Shown one piece after another: positions 1 through 6,919 of a stretch of DNA of 6,919 nucleotides. The position numbers and the translations under genes were made by a program. This DNA is from a virus. Its lineage: Duplodnaviria > Heunggongvirae > Uroviricota > Caudoviricetes. The notes below the pieces were generated by a model. That model was not told the origin of the DNA. It did no database searches and was given only the letters and a program-made list of their open reading frames with translations. How positions within the stretch are numbered: the first letter of the stretch is position 1; each line of letters starts with the position of its first letter. Location: positions 1-6,919 of IMG/VR virus record IMGVR_UViG_2737471841_000008; one strand, given 5' to 3'.

Positions 1-585
1 TTACTCCCTGACAGGGTTCGTAGGCCACTCAATATCAGGTGCAGTTGATGTATCAACACGGTTCAGCAACACCCGATATTTTTTCCAGGCTTCCAGCAAT
101 GAGGTTTCTTCCTCCGTTGCGATTTCCAGATCTACAGCATCCTGAAGCGGCGCTATATGCTCACTGGCTACCTGCATCAGGCTGTTTTTTGTTTCTTCCG
201 CCTCCCGGATCCGGAACAGTTTTTCTGCTTCCGTATCCTTCACCCAGGCTGTGCCGTTCCACTTCTGAAACTCCCCTTCCGGGGATAACCAGGTGACATT
301 TTCCGGTAATGAGCCGAGTTCAGAAATAAATAACGCGTCGCCGGAAGCCACGTCATAAACCGTTTTACCCCGATGATCTTCAACGAGATGCCACGATGAC
401 TCATCACTGTTGAAAACAGCCACGAAACCAGCCGGAATATCTGGCGGTGCAATATCGGTACTGTTTGCTGGCAGACCTGTATGAGGCGGAATATATGCAT
501 CACCTTCACCAATAAATTCATTAGTTCCGGACAGCAGATTATAAATTTTTATGGTCCGTGGTTGTTCACTCATTCTGAATGCCAT
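1..585 (-). CDS. tfa: Tail fibre assembly protein (lambda Tfa-like, 194 aa)
   Basis: Complete ORF, ATG at 585-583, TAA at 3-1. Translation [18 protein letters not shown]...[11 protein letters not shown] matches from recall the phage lambda Tfa protein of the same length, almost residue for residue. Its ATG shares one base with the stop of the upstream stf ORF (TAATG at 583-587). Confidence 0.9.
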
Positions 586-1799
586 TATGCAAGCCTCACA
601 ATGTAGTTAAATGCGATGTTTTTGACGGTGTTTTCCGCGTTACCAGCAGCGTTAACGGTGATGGTGTGTCCATGTGAGCCAATCGCAACAGAGTGCGTAT
701 GAGCACCAATACCGACAGTATGTGCGTGAGCACCTGCAGATGCAGCTGTGCCGCTGACACTATGAGTGTGCGCTCCTGCAGCACTTGTATTCACACTGGC
801 CGCAGACACTACCTTATGTACTGACCCATTTTGTGACCACTGGCTGACTGCTGATGCGCCTGTGACACTATGAGTATGGTTTCCGGCACTTGCGGCTGTA
901 CCGCTCACACTGTGCGTATGCGCCCCGATGTTATTCGTGGATTTAGTGCCGTAATCAAACGACGATGTGGTTTTCGTCCCCAAATCCGTACTGGATGCAC
1001 TGGCGCTGTGGGTGTGCGATTTAATGCCGTCCTGTTCCTGAGACAATACGGCCCGACCACTGGCAGGTTTGCCCTTAATCGTCCAGCCACGCATATCAGG
1101 GATCACGCCTGACGGATAAGCGGTTGCAAGTTTCGGGTAAGCGGATTTGTCAAAAGTCTGCCCCTGCATCAGGGCATAACCAGACGGAACGGTATCTGAT
1201 GGCCACGGGATTGGTGCGCCAGGCGGATAAAACTGCTCTGATGGCGTATAGAGTGAATAAACTGTACCGTCCGTTAACCCTTCCGGCTTATTAGCAGAAT
1301 ATGCTGGTGACGTATGAATAGTCACGCTGGCATTACTGGTATAATCCCATTGAATATTTACACCAGTCGCATAATTTCCGATTGCAACGTAAATATCGTA
1401 AGTATCACCAGATGTATTGACCCAGGCAAAATTTGTAAACCCTGTCGATGTGCGCTGCCATAAAGCACCAGTAATCCCCTTCGGATTACCATTACCTGCA
1501 CGCAAAACAAGTTCAGATATACCTGCCTGTTGAGGTGACCCCACGTTAAATCCCGCGCCACCAATCAACGTAATTGAAACAACAGAACTCGCCTGTGGCA
1601 TGGTTACCGTTGCTAATTTGAACCAACCAGCACCACCGCTGAATGACATTGTTGTTGAGTTAAGCGTACCAATATCTTTCGGCGTCAGTGTTATATCCGC
1701 TGAAAGCGCCTTACCATTCACCTTACGGGCAGAAGGTAACCCTGCGTCTGTCAGCACAGTAAAACCCGGTGTGCATCGTTTTTGATTATTCCCGCACAC
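585..1799 (-). CDS. stf: Side tail fibre protein, C-terminal receptor-binding portion (5'-truncated remnant; the track start is a GTG directly after an in-frame TGA)
   Basis: 404-aa ORF ending ...[15 protein letters not shown] with repeated His-rich [15 protein letters not shown] units, as in lambda Stf / T4 gp37-type fibre tips. The segment [19 protein letters not shown] is a typical internal tail-fibre repeat. Full-length Stf proteins are much longer; here the reading frame is closed by an in-frame TGA at 1800-1802 (minus strand), so the N-terminal tail-attachment part is absent. Confidence 0.72.
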
Positions 1800-2373: not shown

Positions 2374-2835
2374 CTATCTGCACTGCTCATTAATATACTT
2401 CTGGGTTCCTTCCAGTTGTTTTTGCATAGTGATCAGCCTCTCTCTGAGGGTGAAATAATCCCGTTCAGCGGTGTCTGCCAGTCGGGGGGAGGCTGCATTA
2501 TCCACGCCGGAGGCGGTGGTGGCTTCACGCACTGACTGACAGACTGCTTTGATGTGCAACCGACGACGACCAGCGGCAACATCATCACGCAGAGCATCAT
2601 TTTCAGCTTTCGCATCAGCTAACTCCTTCGTGTATTTTGCATCGAGCGCAGCAACATCACGCTGACGCATCTGCATGTCAGTAATTGCCGCGTTCGCCAG
2701 CTTCAGTTCTCTGGCATTTTTGTCGCGCTGGGCTTTGTAGGTAATGGCGTTATCACGGTAATGATTAACAGCCCATGACAGGCCGACGATGATGCAGATA
2801 ACCAGAGCGGAGATAATCGCGGTTACTCTGTTCAT
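2374..2835 (-). CDS. rzpD: Rz i-spanin (inner-membrane spanin subunit, 153 aa)
   Basis: [39 protein letters not shown]...KYINEQCR, essentially lambda Rz from recall, with an N-terminal transmembrane segment. ATG at 2835-2833 overlaps the endolysin stop (ATGA at 2832-2835). The track start at 2847 is an upstream GTG and is rejected. Confidence 0.9.
2433..2615 (-). CDS. rzoD: Rz1 o-spanin (outer-membrane lipoprotein spanin subunit, 60 aa), embedded in the +1 frame of Rz
   Basis: [24 protein letters not shown]...[29 protein letters not shown]: lipobox VVVGC and a proline-rich periplasmic part, matching lambda Rz1 from recall. Lies wholly inside the Rz coding sequence in another frame. Confidence 0.85.
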
Positions 2836-3329
2836 TGCTGACCCCACAAACAGATTTCACGCTCAATCTCACGACGAGTCATGAGACCTTTCCATTGCTT
2901 ACCGCCAGCATATGTCCAGCGACGTAGCTGATCACATGCGCCTTTGATATCGCCCTGGTTTATTTTGCGAAGAAGCGTCGATGTTCTGAAATTGCCAGCA
3001 CCCACGTTGTAAACGAATGAGTAAAAAGCGCCGCGCGTTGTTTCCGGTATATCGACTTTGATGTACGGGTTAATTTGTCTGGCGACAGTGGCAAGGTCTT
3101 TATTCAAGAGTGCTTTGCATTCTGCTTTGGTATACGTTTTACCGAGCATGATGTCTTTTCCTGTATGCCCGTGACATACAGTCCATACACCAACAATATC
3201 TTTATATGGTATGTAGCTGACACCTTCCAGACCATCGTCACCACTCGGACCAGTGATGAGCACAGACGCTATGGCAACAGCCCCACCACCAATAGCAGCT
3301 GCTACAGCCTTGCGTAATGATGGCGACAT
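2832..3329 (-). CDS. rrrD: SAR endolysin (phage 21 R-type lysozyme with N-terminal signal-anchor-release domain, 165 aa)
   Basis: [57 protein letters not shown]...: a Gly/Ala-rich weakly hydrophobic N-terminus followed by a lysozyme-like body, matching phage 21 R / DLP12 RrrD from recall. ATG at 3329-3327 overlaps the holin stop (TAATG). Confidence 0.9.
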
Positions 3330-3544
3330 TATTCACCTCTCGCAGCCTTGCGCTTATCTTCTTTAATCTTGAAATAAAGGTTTGTCAGGTACGTCAGCAG
3401 GCCAAATACCAGGCTACCCAGCACTCCAATTGCCGCCCACTGTGAGGGCGTGACTTTATCTAGCAGCTGTAAAAACCAGTACCCGGCACTACCTGCTGAG
3501 GTGCCATAGGCGACACCCGTTGTTAACTTATCCATGGATTTCAT
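3329..3544 (-). CDS. essD: Pinholin (phage 21 S-type class II holin, 71 aa) with dual-start motif Met1-Lys2-Ser3-Met4
   Basis: [71 protein letters not shown], near-identical from recall to phage 21 S. RBS GAGGTGG at 3549-3555 (minus strand). ATG codons at 3544-3542 and 3535-3533 give the 71/68 dual-start arrangement. Confidence 0.9.
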
Positions 3545-3667
3545 AACCCCACCTCGCAGACAAAGCGGGTGTAAATTGAGGGAATACTACGAAACGTAAC
3601 AGACTCGGAGTCAGTGAATAACTCAGGTATTGGGTTATCAGCTAATATCGAGACTCAAAAAATGGAA

Positions 3668-3689
3668 AAACCCGCTCGACGGCGGGTTT
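3668..3689 (-). terminator. Intrinsic terminator-like hairpin on the minus strand, ~125 nt upstream of the holin start (candidate tR'-type terminator)
   Basis: Plus strand aaacccgc-tcgacg-gcgggttt forms an 8-bp stem with a 6-nt loop. On the minus strand the stem is followed immediately by TTCCATTTTTT (RC of 3655-3667). On the plus strand it is not followed by a T-tract, so it is minus-strand specific. Confidence 0.45.
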
Positions 3690-3999
3690 AAGCTGTGTGA
3701 CGAAGTAACCACTCTTAACAGCATAACCAATTTTTTACGTACGTAAACCACTAAATGATATTTGCGAGAATGCTACCGAGTATTGAAAACACCACTACAA
3801 ATACATAAGCAAATCTCAACAAATAACCAACAAATTATTTCCAGTGTTATTTTTAGCTTATTTAAATTGAACCTTCAAATTATAGAGCGCTTATAAATAA
3901 CAGTCGTTAATATAAATTGGCTAATAGATTTATTTTTATTCAGCAAAGAGCTATGAATAGGATTCGATAGAAAAAAGTTCAGATAAAAATAGAGATCTA

Positions 4000-4116
4000 C
4001 TTCACAAATCAAACGAGAAACCAAAACTTACATCTTGAAATAATCACATTGATTAGATGAATATTTATCGCGCAGTGACATCATTTTTTAATAATAGTTC
4101 AAAAAAAGGGCTCACG
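4000..4116 (+). promoter_or_regulatory. Porin gene promoter / 5' leader region, containing an OmpR-box-like sequence CTTACATCTTGAAATAATCA (4027-4046)
   Basis: AT-rich region immediately upstream of the porin start. 4027-4046 resembles, from memory, the ompC C1 OmpR site TTTACATTTTGAAACATCTA (about 14 of 20 positions, the left half nearly perfect). Exact -35/-10 elements not resolved. Confidence 0.3.
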
Positions 4117-5214
4117 ATGAAAAAATTAACAGTGGCAATTTCTGCTGTAGCTGCATCAGTACTGATGGCGATGTCTGCTCAGGCAGCTGAAATTTATAAT
4201 AAAGACAGTAACAAGCTGGATCTGTACGGGAAAGTTAATGCTAAGCACTACTTCTCCTCTAATGATGCAGATGATGGTGATACTACTTATGCCCGTCTTG
4301 GCTTCAAAGGTGAAACCCAAATCAACGATCAACTGACTGGTTTCGGTCAGTGGGAATATGAATTCAAAGGCAACCGCGCTGAATCTCAAGGTTCCTCCAA
4401 AGACAAAACCCGTCTTGCATTTGCAGGCCTGAAATTCGGTGACTACGGCTCAATCGATTACGGCCGTAACTACGGTGTAGCATACGACATCGGTGCGTGG
4501 ACTGACGTTCTGCCAGAATTCGGTGGCGATACCTGGACCCAAACAGATGTGTTCATGACTGGTCGCACCACTGGTGTTGCAACCTATCGTAACAACGACT
4601 TCTTTGGTCTGGTTGATGGTCTGAACTTTGCTGCTCAGTACCAAGGCAAAAACGATCGTAGCGATTTCGATAACTACACTGAAGGTAACGGTGATGGCTT
4701 CGGTTTCTCTGCTACCTATGAATACGAAGGATTCGGTATCGGTGCAACTTATGCGAAATCTGATCGTACCGACACTCAAGTTAATGCAGGGAAAGTTCTT
4801 CCTGAAGTATTTGCTTCCGGTAAAAATGCAGAAGTTTGGGCCGCAGGTCTGAAATATGACGCTAACAACATTTACCTGGCCACTACCTATTCTGAAACCC
4901 AGAATATGACTGTATTTGCTGATCACTTCGTTGCTAATAAAGCCCAAAACTTCGAAGCTGTTGCACAATATCAGTTCGATTTCGGTCTGCGTCCGTCCGT
5001 TGCTTACCTGCAATCTAAAGGTAAGGATCTTGGAGTATGGGGCGATCAGGACTTAGTCAAATATGTTGATGTAGGTGCAACCTATTACTTCAACAAAAAT
5101 ATGTCTACTTTCGTTGATTACAAAATCAACCTGCTTGACAAAAATGACTTCACTAAAGCACTCGGTGTAAGCACTGATGACATCGTTGCTGTAGGTCTGG
5201 TTTACCAGTTCTAA
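4117..5214 (+). CDS. nmpC: Outer-membrane general porin, phage-encoded NmpC/Lc type (OmpC/OmpF/PhoE family), intact, 365 aa
   Basis: ATG at 4117 with RBS AGGG at 4107-4110; stop TAA at 5212-5214. Signal peptide [23 protein letters not shown], mature N-terminus [16 protein letters not shown], porin hallmarks throughout and the C-terminal VGLVYQF ending in Phe. The track start at 4057 (MNIYRAV...) is rejected because the signal peptide begins at 4117. Confidence 0.92.
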
Positions 5215-5230
5215 TCTGATTACGAAAAAG

Positions 5231-5264
5231 ATATGTTGCGGGAGGCGTTGCCTCCCCAACATAT
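5231..5264 (-). terminator. Strong intrinsic terminator on the minus strand just past the 3' end of the porin gene (alternative candidate tR' for Q-dependent late transcription)
   Basis: atatgttg-c-gggaggc / gttg / cctccc-caacatat forms an imperfect ~14-bp GC-rich stem with one bulged C. On the minus strand it is followed by CTTTTTCGTA (RC of 5221-5230); on the plus strand there is no T-tract after it. Confidence 0.45.
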
Positions 5265-5352
5265 AAGTGGCTCCCTCAAGCCACTTCCTTTAGAAGCACA
5301 ACCTTGCTTCTAACTATATAAACCTTCTGTTATATATTACCCTTTATTTTTG

Positions 5353-5386
5353 GGGGCGTCTCAACGCCCCATTTTTAATAATTTTT
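5353..5386 (+). terminator. Intrinsic terminator on the plus strand (likely porin mRNA terminator)
   Basis: gggggcg-tctcaa-cgcccc stem-loop (5353-5370) followed on the plus strand by ATTTTTAATAATTTTT. On the minus strand it is followed by an A-rich tract, so it is not a minus-strand terminator. Confidence 0.45.
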
Positions 5387-5403
5387 AGTAAACAATTGGC
5401 ATA

Positions 5404-5787
5404 TTAATTAGAGTTATTAACAACGATATCCATCTCTAACCGGATATCTAATGCCATTAACATCCCTTCAATTATGCCCTCAGCCTTCTGTAACCTTTTC
5501 CCGATATAACCATCAGAGCAGCAATGCTTACCTGCCAGTGACATGAATGTCATACCGACTACATAATAATCTACTAATAAATCGTGCAAATCGCTGTTGT
5601 TCTTTTTCAGACGGGCCATGCACCCGCAAATGATCATCGCGTCATCGTCACAACATTGCGGGCGAGATTTTACTTTTGAAGGAATTAATCCCTTAAAACC
5701 GGCGGCAATGGACGACCAGGTCACATCTTCATGATTATTAGCCGCCCACGCTCCCCAACGTTCAAGAACCATCTGAATATCACGCAT
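5404..5787 (-). CDS. quuD: Late-gene antiterminator Q (Phage_antitermQ family; DLP12 QuuD-like, 127 aa)
   Basis: [34 protein letters not shown]...[16 protein letters not shown]...[12 protein letters not shown]... with a Cys-rich putative Zn-binding cluster. ATG at 5787-5785 with GGAG 7 nt upstream. The track start at 5802 is a TTG and is rejected. Confidence 0.85.
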
Positions 5788-6117
5788 TAACTTTCTCCAC
5801 AAAATCAGGCCAGCACACCAATCGCCAGTGCGCGATCGATAAAACGAAATATCAGCTCAAGCTGGGAGCCATACTTCTCTTCAAATGCCACGGTAACCAG
5901 GTCCACCTCGCCTGATGTGGCTAAAAGCAGGCACATAACAGCTAAGTATTTTCAACCAGAGAGAATCCTTAGCGTTGTGGTGAATGCGGCTCAGCGCACG
6001 CGGGTTAAGGTTGAGGCTGACAGTCGACCTTCTGTGGATACCCACCCGCCTGGTGTGCAACCTTCGCCAGGCACCGGGAGGCACCCGGCACCACAACTTT
6101 ATGCTGTGTGTAGTCCT

Positions 6118-6164
6118 GGCGGTACCAGCTTGTACCCTTGCTTCCGGCTGGTACCGTCCTTTTT
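6118..6164 (+). terminator. Terminator-like hairpin on the plus strand inside the non-coding region upstream of the integrase-like ORF
   Basis: cggtaccagc (6120-6129) pairs perfectly with gctggtaccg (6147-6156), enclosing a 17-nt loop, and is followed by TCCTTTTT (6157-6164). No T-tract follows it on the minus strand. Confidence 0.35.
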
Positions 6165-6253
6165 ACAAAACAGAGAAGAGCATCACCGGACGACGGGCTC
6201 ATAACCCAATCCATCCGGGCGGCAGTCACCGCAGGTGTTCTTCTCTGTTTTGT
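6165..6253. repeat. Perfect 15-bp inverted repeat (acaaaacagagaaga / tcttctctgttttgt) separated by 59 nt, directly upstream of the integrase-like ORF
   Basis: Arms at 6165-6179 and 6239-6253 are exact reverse complements. An extra cacc/ggtg pairing (6184-6187 / 6234-6237) extends the stem and the intervening sequence contains further ccgg/ccgg pairing. Confidence 0.6.
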
Positions 6254-6301
6254 GGAGAAACTAACCGACCTTGCAGGGTCGATATGATGAGGAGCAGCAA
6301 A

Positions 6302-6919
6302 ATGGCTAGCGAACGCAGTACTGATGTGCAGGCATTTATCGGGGAGCTGGACGGCGGCGTATTTGAAACCAAAATCGGCGCAGTTCTCAGTGAAGTCGCT
6401 TCCGGTGTGATGAACACGAAAACCAAAGGTAAGGTCTCGCTCAACCTGGAAATCGAACCGTTTGATGAGAACCGAGTGAAAATCAAACACAAACTCTCAT
6501 ATGTTCGCCCGACTACCGCCTGTAAAGTGTTGCGTGATCAAATAGGCAAGCATCACAAATGGGTGTTTGTACATACCAAGGCGGCTAAGCGAGCAGATGG
6601 AACATCAACGCCTGCGGTCAGGAAGATGCGCATCGACAGCAAGACATCATGGCTATCAGCTTGTCGTCGTGCAGGAATTGAAGATTTCCGTTTCCATGAC
6701 CTCAGACACACCTGGGCAAGCTGGCTGATCCAGTCAGGCGTCCCATTATCTGTGCTTCAGGAAATGGGCGGATGGGAGTCCATAGAAATGGTTCGTAGGT
6801 ATGCTCACCTTGCGCCTAATCATTTGACAGAGCATGCAAGGAAAATAGACGACATTTTTGGTGATAATGTCCCAAATATGTCCCACTGTGGAATTATGGA
6901 GGATATAAAGAAGGCGTAA
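6302..6919 (+). CDS. Integrase-like ORF (205 aa): unrecognised ~85-aa N-terminal part fused in frame to a tyrosine-recombinase C-terminal catalytic tail; probable integrase remnant
   Basis: ATG at 6302 with AGGAG at 6290-6294; stop TAA at 6917-6919. The C-terminal half ...[60 protein letters not shown] carries box II H-x-x-R (HDLRHT), the conserved Trp, and the catalytic Tyr in RYAHL. No box I TGxRxxE motif is present in the N-terminal part. The same frame stays open back to an ATG at 5984, but that stretch translates to Arg/Cys/Trp-rich sequence that does not look protein-like. Confidence 0.6.

Follow-up and report, generated by a model that had tools for sequence, protein, structure and literature searches.

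An intact NmpC/Lc-type porin gene with the sRNA ipeX in a DLP12-like prophage remnant, probably outside the Q-dependent transcript

The 6.9-kb stretch of viral DNA analysed here (6,919 nucleotides, referred to throughout as the window) is a decayed, heavily deleted remnant of a DLP12-like lambdoid prophage, and the feature under study is an intact general porin gene of the NmpC/Lc type found in lambdoid prophages, together with the sRNA ipeX in its 3′ UTR. The porin gene itself adds nothing new, Lc/NmpC having been known since the 1980s and intact copies being widespread and abundantly expressed. The useful outcome is a corrected regulatory picture, in which a porin/sRNA cassette expressed in lysogeny appears to lie outside the Q-dependent transcript, unlike stx. 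Judging from homology and position, this transcript probably has its start at about 3713 and does not run across the porin at any point. If this is true, porin expression should not be coupled to late induction in the way that an earlier reading of the same DNA, made by a model from the letters and open reading frames (the sequence-only reading), had proposed.

The porin gene and its prophage setting

The features of the window are collected in Table 1. In other strains the same genes are named quuD, porin, essD, rrrD, rzpD and iss/borD, and they adjoin intD and tRNA-Arg. The early region of the element is deleted. A search for colinearity over the whole window found none among complete E. coli genomes, the best matches covering 78–82% of it in 4–6 pieces, and this copy therefore has its own set of deletions. 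The Q protein is 99% identical in amino acid sequence to K-12 QuuD, 85% to Q of phage 1H12 and 78% to Sakai Q933, and it gives a distant match to the solved Q21 structures.

Table 1. Positions of genes and putative control elements in the window.
Feature	Position	Strand	Basis or remark
Tail-fibre assembly gene	1–585	minus	
Tail-fibre fragment	585–1799	minus	
bor/iss	up to 2342	plus	
Rz	2374–2835/2847	minus	lysis cassette
Rz1	2433–2615	minus	lysis cassette
Lysozyme R	2832–3329	minus	lysis cassette
Holin S, S21 type	3329–3544	minus	lysis cassette, which spans 2374–3544
Hairpin and T run, candidate Q-sensitive terminator upstream of S	3657–3689	minus	AAACCCGCCGTCGAGCGGGTTT + TTCCATTTTT; +25 to about +55 of the pR′-type start
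pR′-type late promoter homologue	3713–3747	minus	homology to Sakai Sp5, TTTACG-16-TATCAT
Porin promoter and 5′ leader (PnmpC)	3918–4116	plus	197/199 identical to K-12 −199 to −1
CRP site annotated in PA-2 record J02580	maps to 3989–4009		within the porin promoter region
Porin coding sequence, nmpC/lc type	4117–5214	plus	365 aa, RefSeq WP_000737266.1-type; full-length Porin_1 match
Porin signal peptide	4117–4185	plus	23 aa, then AEIYNK; PA-2 lc annotation
CTAA, the K-12 IS5 target (duplicated there)	5153–5156	plus	after codon 346; unoccupied in the window
Porin mRNA 3′ UTR, ipeX sRNA region	5215–about 5378	plus	about 164 nt, four hairpins; fold z = −7.5
Predicted terminator for transcripts leaving Q	5225–5264 (hairpin 5264–5231)	minus	15-bp hairpin with one bulge, then CTTTTT; predicted from the fold
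Intrinsic terminator of the porin-ipeX transcript	5353–5370 (hairpin), T run to 5376	plus	GGGGCG-TCTC-AACGCCCC + ATTTTT; terminator scan
Antiterminator Q, QuuD type	5404–5787	minus	127 aa, begins MRDIQ; Pfam Phage_antitermQ, E 1e-53
intD 3′ end	6510–6919	plus	

The porin reading frame occupies 1098 nt, comprising 365 codons and a TAA stop codon with no internal stops, and its product is a general bacterial porin of the Pfam family Porin_1, OmpC subfamily. The Porin_1 profile is matched from end to end (1–337 of 337, E 1e-156, 522 bits against a cut-off of 23.7), the cut-off of the NCBIfam "porin OmpC" subfamily NF007841 is passed with 526.5 against 484 bits, and the scores fall below the NCBIfam equivalog cut-offs for PhoE and OmpF. 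The closest solved structures are those of OmpC and OmpK36 (E 1e-135). The protein ends in GLVYQF, with a final aromatic Phe (beta-signal), and its 99.5% identity to Lc/NmpC suggests that it forms trimeric outer-membrane pores. Full-length membership in one Pfam family is shared with OmpC, OmpF, PhoE and Salmonella OmpD; in contrast to the chromosomal porins, the gene in the window belongs to a prophage, in which it lies between Q and the lysis genes, and carbon limitation and CRP, rather than osmolarity, are reported as the main regulators of NmpC. In phage records the product is often labelled OmpD or OmpC.

Alignment with PA-2 lc and K-12 nmpC confirmed that the gene is intact. The protein is identical to PA-2 Lc at 363/365 residues (1095/1098 nt), the two substitutions being R99H and V154F, and its start codon, signal peptide and stop coincide with those of PA-2 lc (J02580). 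Relative to K-12 NmpC rebuilt without IS5 it is again identical at 363/365 residues, with 19 nt differences, and the two amino acid changes affect residues other than those that differ from Lc. No frameshift or premature stop was found in either alignment, which bears out the sequence-only reading that the frame is complete through the C-terminal Phe (365 uninterrupted codons ending in VYQF). The same reading had noted the lack of any IS-like sequence, unlike K-12 nmpC::IS5, and this holds as well: the window aligns colinearly across the K-12 IS5 site at 5153–5156, so that no IS is present in the porin, and the CTAA target is empty. The annotation of the phage 434B record likewise reads "IS5 insertion after codon 346". 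K-12 DLP12 (qsr′) has the same quuD-nmpC-essD locus, with the ipeX region directly after the nmpC stop codon, but in MG1655 IS5 parts the last 19 nmpC codons and ipeX from the promoter. PA-2 has the same flanking lysis genes in the same orientation; it differs in the AT-rich upstream region and the lysis genes, which are about 96% identical with three small indels, and in being a viable phage, whereas the window element is a deleted remnant. The porin was correctly placed by the earlier reading between Q and S on the opposite strand, the porin being on the plus strand and Q, S, R, Rz and Rz1 all on the minus strand.

This porin gene is already known, common and ordinary. A copy 100% identical in nucleotide sequence is found in E. 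coli L73, and porin homologues of at least 80% length are present in 2,465 of the 5,426 complete E. coli genomes. The quuD-porin-essD context recurs in every strain inspected (K-12, KSC9, L73 and AH62). There are two main alleles, the 365-aa form of the window and a 360-aa form, about 91% identical, which PGAP names OmpC. The whole Q-porin-S module occurs in 36 phage records, including the isolated temperate phages Kati, PhiR30_1, mEp332 and ev243, and a further 460 IMG/VR contigs encode a relative. In some E. coli lineages nmpC is lost or disrupted by IS5; outside a few K-12 lineages, an intact porin is the usual state and not exceptional.

Porin promoter, ipeX and the flanking terminators

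The promoter scan did not locate the porin promoter in the upstream region of the gene, and the assignment in Table 1 is based on K-12. There, a sigma70 promoter lies within the 199 bp preceding nmpC, with Crp as its activator and OmpR, IHF and MprA as its repressors; the strength of PnmpC suffices for expression of the IS5 transposase gene, and deletion of −199 to −1 abolishes the PnmpC-driven effects (PMC11677980). Positions 3980–4116 of the window show little variation among 51 variants. K-12 NCM3722 has a functional nmpC, and in this strain NmpC makes up about 2% of the proteome and is the main porin under carbon limitation; its level is 200-fold higher than in an MG1655 derivative, and OmpC changes in the opposite direction (PMC8144880). 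The gene could nonetheless be an intact yet quiescent passenger of a dead and decaying prophage, never made in useful amounts. The heavy deletion of the surrounding prophage, the losses and IS5 disruptions of nmpC in some lineages, and a cited title in PMC3333887, which speaks of nmpC as a "quiescent porin gene" in E. coli B, would all agree with this. Against it stand the near identity of the promoter region to the active K-12 PnmpC, the yield of the intact allele in NCM3722 under carbon limitation, a coding sequence with only 2 amino acid changes from PA-2 Lc and no frameshifts, and a cassette kept nearly unchanged in thousands of genomes. We consider quiescence very unlikely.

From the porin stop codon to a Rho-independent terminator runs a structured untranslated stretch of the kind expected for ipeX (about 167 nt), and 5215–5441 is 100% identical to PA-2. 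An Rfam scan of the window at E values up to 1 listed no ipeX or StxS family, returning only IS009 and a sub-threshold STnc100. According to the literature, IpeX reduces the levels of OmpC and OmpF. The porin-ipeX transcript has its terminator 28 nt short of the Q stop codon, and among 32 variants this terminator varies only in the loop (5360/5361). A terminator region had been recognized in the sequence-only reading; the terminator stands, and what was missed is the identity of the region as the known sRNA ipeX, with its four hairpins and complete identity to PA-2. That reading also took the gene for a moron with its own promoter region and terminator. This is reasonable in view of the predicted terminator at 5353–5370 and the similarity to the active PnmpC, and the cassette is indeed present or absent between conserved neighbours: among the matches listed, Q and the pR′-type block described below are adjacent in 24 loci and elsewhere are split by the porin (34 loci) or by about 23 other cargo types.

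A second hairpin, read from the opposite strand, lies within the same region (5264–5225). A T run follows it on the minus strand only, and the predicted terminator as a whole reaches to 11 nt past the porin stop codon. The terminator scan did not list it, probably because the stem is bulged. This hairpin would stop transcripts coming out of Q, in which case the Q and porin transcripts would share about 150 bp at their 3′ ends. When G-U wobble in the ipeX hairpins was used to tell the strands apart, one substitution fell on each side: A5294G is compatible with a plus-strand RNA, and T5319C, located in a weak AU stem, with a minus-strand one.

The late promoter homologue and the reach of Q-dependent transcription

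When the intergenic region next to S was used as a query, matches in porin-less phages were confined to the stretch that begins 16 nt upstream of S and to a short island at 3748–3666. This island aligns directly after Q in Sakai Sp5 and in a q933 stx2c phage, and 1.3–1.5 kb downstream of Q in phiP27 and mEp460. In the window it holds a −35 element TTTACG (3747–3742), a 16-nt spacer with CGTAAAAAA, a putative Q-binding element, and a −10 element TATGCT (3725–3720), with a predicted start at 3713, 169 nt upstream of S (3544). The corresponding start in Sakai could be compared with published data. The Sakai RNA from PR′ to tR′, StxS, is 258 nt long and is cleaved at GU|AUU at +173 (PMC7547250). 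We placed the Sakai start by these two internal distances because the published absolute coordinates and the current record differ by 142 nt. Reconstructed 7 nt past the −10 element TATCAT (position 1346 of locus L008), it lies exactly 258 nt from the T run at about 1603 and has GU|AUU at +173; since both distances agree to the nucleotide, the reconstructed start fits the published PR′. A promoter-like site inside Q (5590–5563, minus strand) was considered as the equivalent of pR′ and rejected, because the 258-nt and +173 constraints put the Sakai start just after Q.

The block belongs to a larger family. Exact matches to the initial transcribed motif, with the −10 element left out of the pattern, were sought in IMG/VR, and at least 120 loci were obtained. 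Among the matches listed, Q lies upstream of the block and on the same strand in 100 of the 100 viral loci that have both (Q 46–100% identical to that of the window), and the gap between the two is 21–100 nt in 24 loci and 0.6–2.5 kb in the other 76, including all 34 porin loci. Loci L132 and L149, whose Q proteins are 82–86% identical to that of the window, have Q, a terminator, a reverse lipoprotein gene and then the block. Among the 66 unique family variants in the matches listed, a −10 element of the form TAnnnT is kept in 59, the middle positions being variable, and a conserved CGYAAAAA motif stands between −35 and −10, in the interval reported for the Q-binding elements of lambda and 82 (PMC4914094). 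Across 51 porin-locus variants, 3700–3739 is invariant and the flanks vary. The hairpin at 3689–3657 is conserved in all family members, again with variation in the loop. The −10 and −35 elements of the window each match the consensus at just 4/6 positions, which explains why the simple promoter scan did not list the block, and the −10-like pause element, TTACTT, departs further from the canonical form than its Sakai counterpart, TTACAT. A full-text literature search with sequence strings of both candidate promoters, this block and the one next to Q considered below, returned nothing useful; for DLP12, a lysis-promoter fragment of "−121 to +650" is described without primers (PMC7918800).

These comparisons suggest that the block at 3747–3713 is a working Q-responsive promoter in this element. 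It is the sole homologue in the window of a mapped pR′ for this Q family, and it lies past the porin towards S. The porin would thus be outside the Q-dependent transcript, and by homology and position it is not downstream of the late promoter of the resident Q. The earlier reading had placed the porin in the late operon, with Q-antiterminated transcripts traversing about 1.1 kb of porin antisense on their way to the lysis genes; the one homologue of the mapped promoter is downstream of the porin, and the predicted start is already beyond it. The further proposal that porin expression and late induction are antagonistic by design is left unsupported, as the cassette most likely lies between Q and pR′. 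Were the phage complete, N-modified early transcripts reading on from Q might still traverse the porin in the antisense direction, so that the porin and lytic growth could to some degree oppose each other, although not in the Q-dependent way that had been proposed.

Two other readings of the control region were weighed. In the one closest to the sequence-only reading, pR′ would lie directly after Q (5215–5403), as in lambda, and the porin would be inside the late operon and shut off by transcriptional interference. The minus strand of this interval does offer TTGAGA-19-TAATAT after an A5 tract, TATATA and TATAGT as −10-like elements in the would-be initial transcribed region, and a hairpin with a T5 run about 100 nt downstream, a layout that resembles lambda 6S RNA. 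Phage 1H12, with a Q 85% identical to that of the window, has an apparent promoter and terminator right after Q, followed by a reverse lipocalin gene; a search for the pR′ block in 1H12 found it absent, and this phage seems to use another type of promoter. The tai/ati "noncontiguous operon" of phi80 likewise pairs a reverse, lysogeny-expressed defence gene with Q-controlled genes, and its proposed shut-off by opposing late transcription (PMC11364771) is the mechanism of the earlier reading; the phi80 gene, however, is described inside the Q-controlled region, whereas in the window the cognate promoter homologue lies beyond the cassette. The interval 5215–5403 has no homology to any mapped pR′, the spacing between its −35 and −10 elements (19) is unfavourable, no minus-strand promoter in it was listed by the scan, variation in the region peaks in the 30 nt beside the Q stop codon, and the interval is already explained as ipeX on the other strand. 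A block of the cognate pR′ type, on the other hand, is present, invariant and correctly placed before S. On balance we regard a promoter directly after Q as unlikely. It is hardly credible that the block and its hairpin (3747–3657) are instead an upstream regulatory site of the porin and no promoter: the 1986 PA-2 record J02580 does annotate a CRP site at the equivalent of 3693–3713, where a TGTGA half-site is present, but the block also occurs in porin-less Stx phages, phiP27, mEp460 and dozens of contigs, always downstream of Q; it precedes the porin start by about 400 nt, whereas −199 to −1 suffices for the PnmpC effects; and in Sakai it coincides with the mapped PR′ start.

In the reading that we prefer, with the late promoter beyond the porin, porin-ipeX would be an autonomous, host-regulated lysogenic-conversion cassette, lying in reverse orientation after the Q gene and before its cognate pR′ (3747–3713). 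A sigma70 promoter no more than about 200 bp upstream, activated by cAMP-CRP, would drive a transcript for a 16-stranded trimeric porin; this transcript would end at its own terminator 28 nt before Q, and its 164-nt tail would be IpeX, lowering OmpC and OmpF. The outcome would be an exchange of outer-membrane porins under carbon limitation and probably the exclusion of OmpC-dependent phages. The Q-dependent transcript would start 169 nt upstream of S, with Q needed only to pass the hairpin at 3689–3657, and two one-way terminators (plus strand, 5353–5376; minus strand, 5264–5225) would bound the cassette.

The interval between Q and pR′ as a site for cargo

The Stx phages 933W and Sakai resemble the window element in having the same Q family (78% amino acid identity), the same type of pR′ block and cargo in the interval between Q and S. 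They differ in where the cargo lies with respect to the promoter. The stx genes are downstream of pR′/tR′ on the same strand and need Q, whereas the porin is upstream of the pR′ homologue, on the opposite strand, with its own promoter.

In the sampled loci the gap between Q and pR′ holds at least 24 cargo types, with the main open reading frames opposite to Q in 22 of 24 types. We tentatively suggest that porin-ipeX is one occupant of a cargo hotspot in lambdoid phages of the 82/933W type, that its cassettes may be insulated from early and late transcription by unidirectional terminators, and that, through their predicted overlap of about 150 nt, the Q mRNA and IpeX could exert antisense control on each other. 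A limited literature search found no earlier description of such a hotspot. The gap may merit attention as a site in lambdoid phages for host-facing and defence cargo: 3 of 10 representative gap cargoes match PADLOC candidate defence families, namely PDC-S20 (a KAP-type NTPase, E 2e-176), PDC-M53A and PDC-M68A (an HNH nuclease). Porin-ipeX would fit among defence-type cargo because the cassette changes receptor availability.

Cargo between Q and the probable late promoter

Among the matches listed for the 120 IMG/VR loci from the pattern scan for the pR′ initial transcribed motif (L090–L209), the interval from the Q stop codon to the pR′ block carries at least some 24 types of cargo, with the main ORFs antisense to Q in 22 of them. 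The cargo includes lipoproteins and two-gene modules with membrane proteins, as well as matches to the PADLOC candidates PDC-S20, PDC-M53A and PDC-M68A. The interval resembles a hotspot for cargo or defence genes. A second prophage porin allele of 360 aa, about 91% identical at the amino acid level and named OmpC by PGAP, fills the same slot between quuD (Q) and essD (S) in many E. coli genomes (at 2501–3583 in locus L210, and in many of L090–L209). In some E. coli genomes (hits H81–H85) the porin gene is reduced to its first 41 nt, unannotated and 97.6–100% identical, and these stubs look like leftovers of cassette loss. The K-12-type Q-nmpC::IS5-S segment is also present in an isolate of phage 434B (OL657227), where the annotation describes it as non-homologous to 434; the segment appears to have been acquired from DLP12 via recombination.

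The pR′-type block and predicted transcript ends

By sequence comparison, the mapped PR′ of the Sakai Stx phages is a homologue of the conserved putative promoter block in the window. Part of this block, which maps to window 3693–3713, is labelled a CRP site in the 1986 record of PA-2, the lambdoid phage with the Lc porin. The hairpin and T run just past the start has the appearance of a strong terminator. The Sakai PR′ RNA is 258 nt in length (PMC7547250), so polymerase must often read past this hairpin, for which a pause, a partial terminator or a part of the Q-loading site are candidate roles.

As its 3′ UTR, at 5215–5378 (+), the porin gene carries the known sRNA ipeX, with four hairpins and its own terminator; the ipeX sequence is the same as in PA-2, and Rfam 15 holds no family for this sRNA. 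Because the predicted one-way terminators in this region face each other, the transcripts of Q and of porin-ipeX are predicted to overlap by ∼150 bp at their 3′ ends, and IpeX might base-pair as an antisense RNA with the tail of the Q mRNA.

Coordinates of promoter, hairpin and terminator features
Feature	Location	Strand	Remarks
pR′-type promoter block (putative)	window 3747–3657	-	TTTACG-16-TATGCT, start about 3713, hairpin + T run
Further copies of the block	L008 (Sakai Sp5) 1312–1395; L006 about 2480–2560; L007 about 2500–2578
Hairpin + T run after pR′ start	window 3689–3657; L008 1369–1395		+24 to +50
Facing one-way terminator	window 5225–5264	-	predicted
Facing one-way terminator	window 5353–5376	+	predicted

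Deletion joints and the rest of the window

At 5896–6919, a 614-nt yfdP-type (CPS-53-like) segment runs without a break into the 410 nt that end intD, which generates a chimeric ORF of 311 codons (5984–6919). The prophage remnant has several deletion joints, this junction being one; another separates bor from the tail-fibre fragment, at about 1730–2000. Within the CPS-53-like segment, upstream of the yfdP fragment, a stretch at 5944–6167 (+) gave a sub-threshold match to the Rfam sRNA STnc100 (42.4 bits versus 47, E = 8e-7).

The tail-fibre fragment itself, at 585–1799 (-), matches Pfam Phage_fiber and Collar and contains a His-rich run of GAHTHSV/GNHTHSV repeats. It begins with GTG, without an upstream partner gene, and appears to be truncated at its N terminus. 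Inside the tail-fibre assembly gene, a full-length match to the Rfam family IS009 (RF02111) was found at 44–242 (-); its score of 222.7 bits compares with a gathering threshold of 117.
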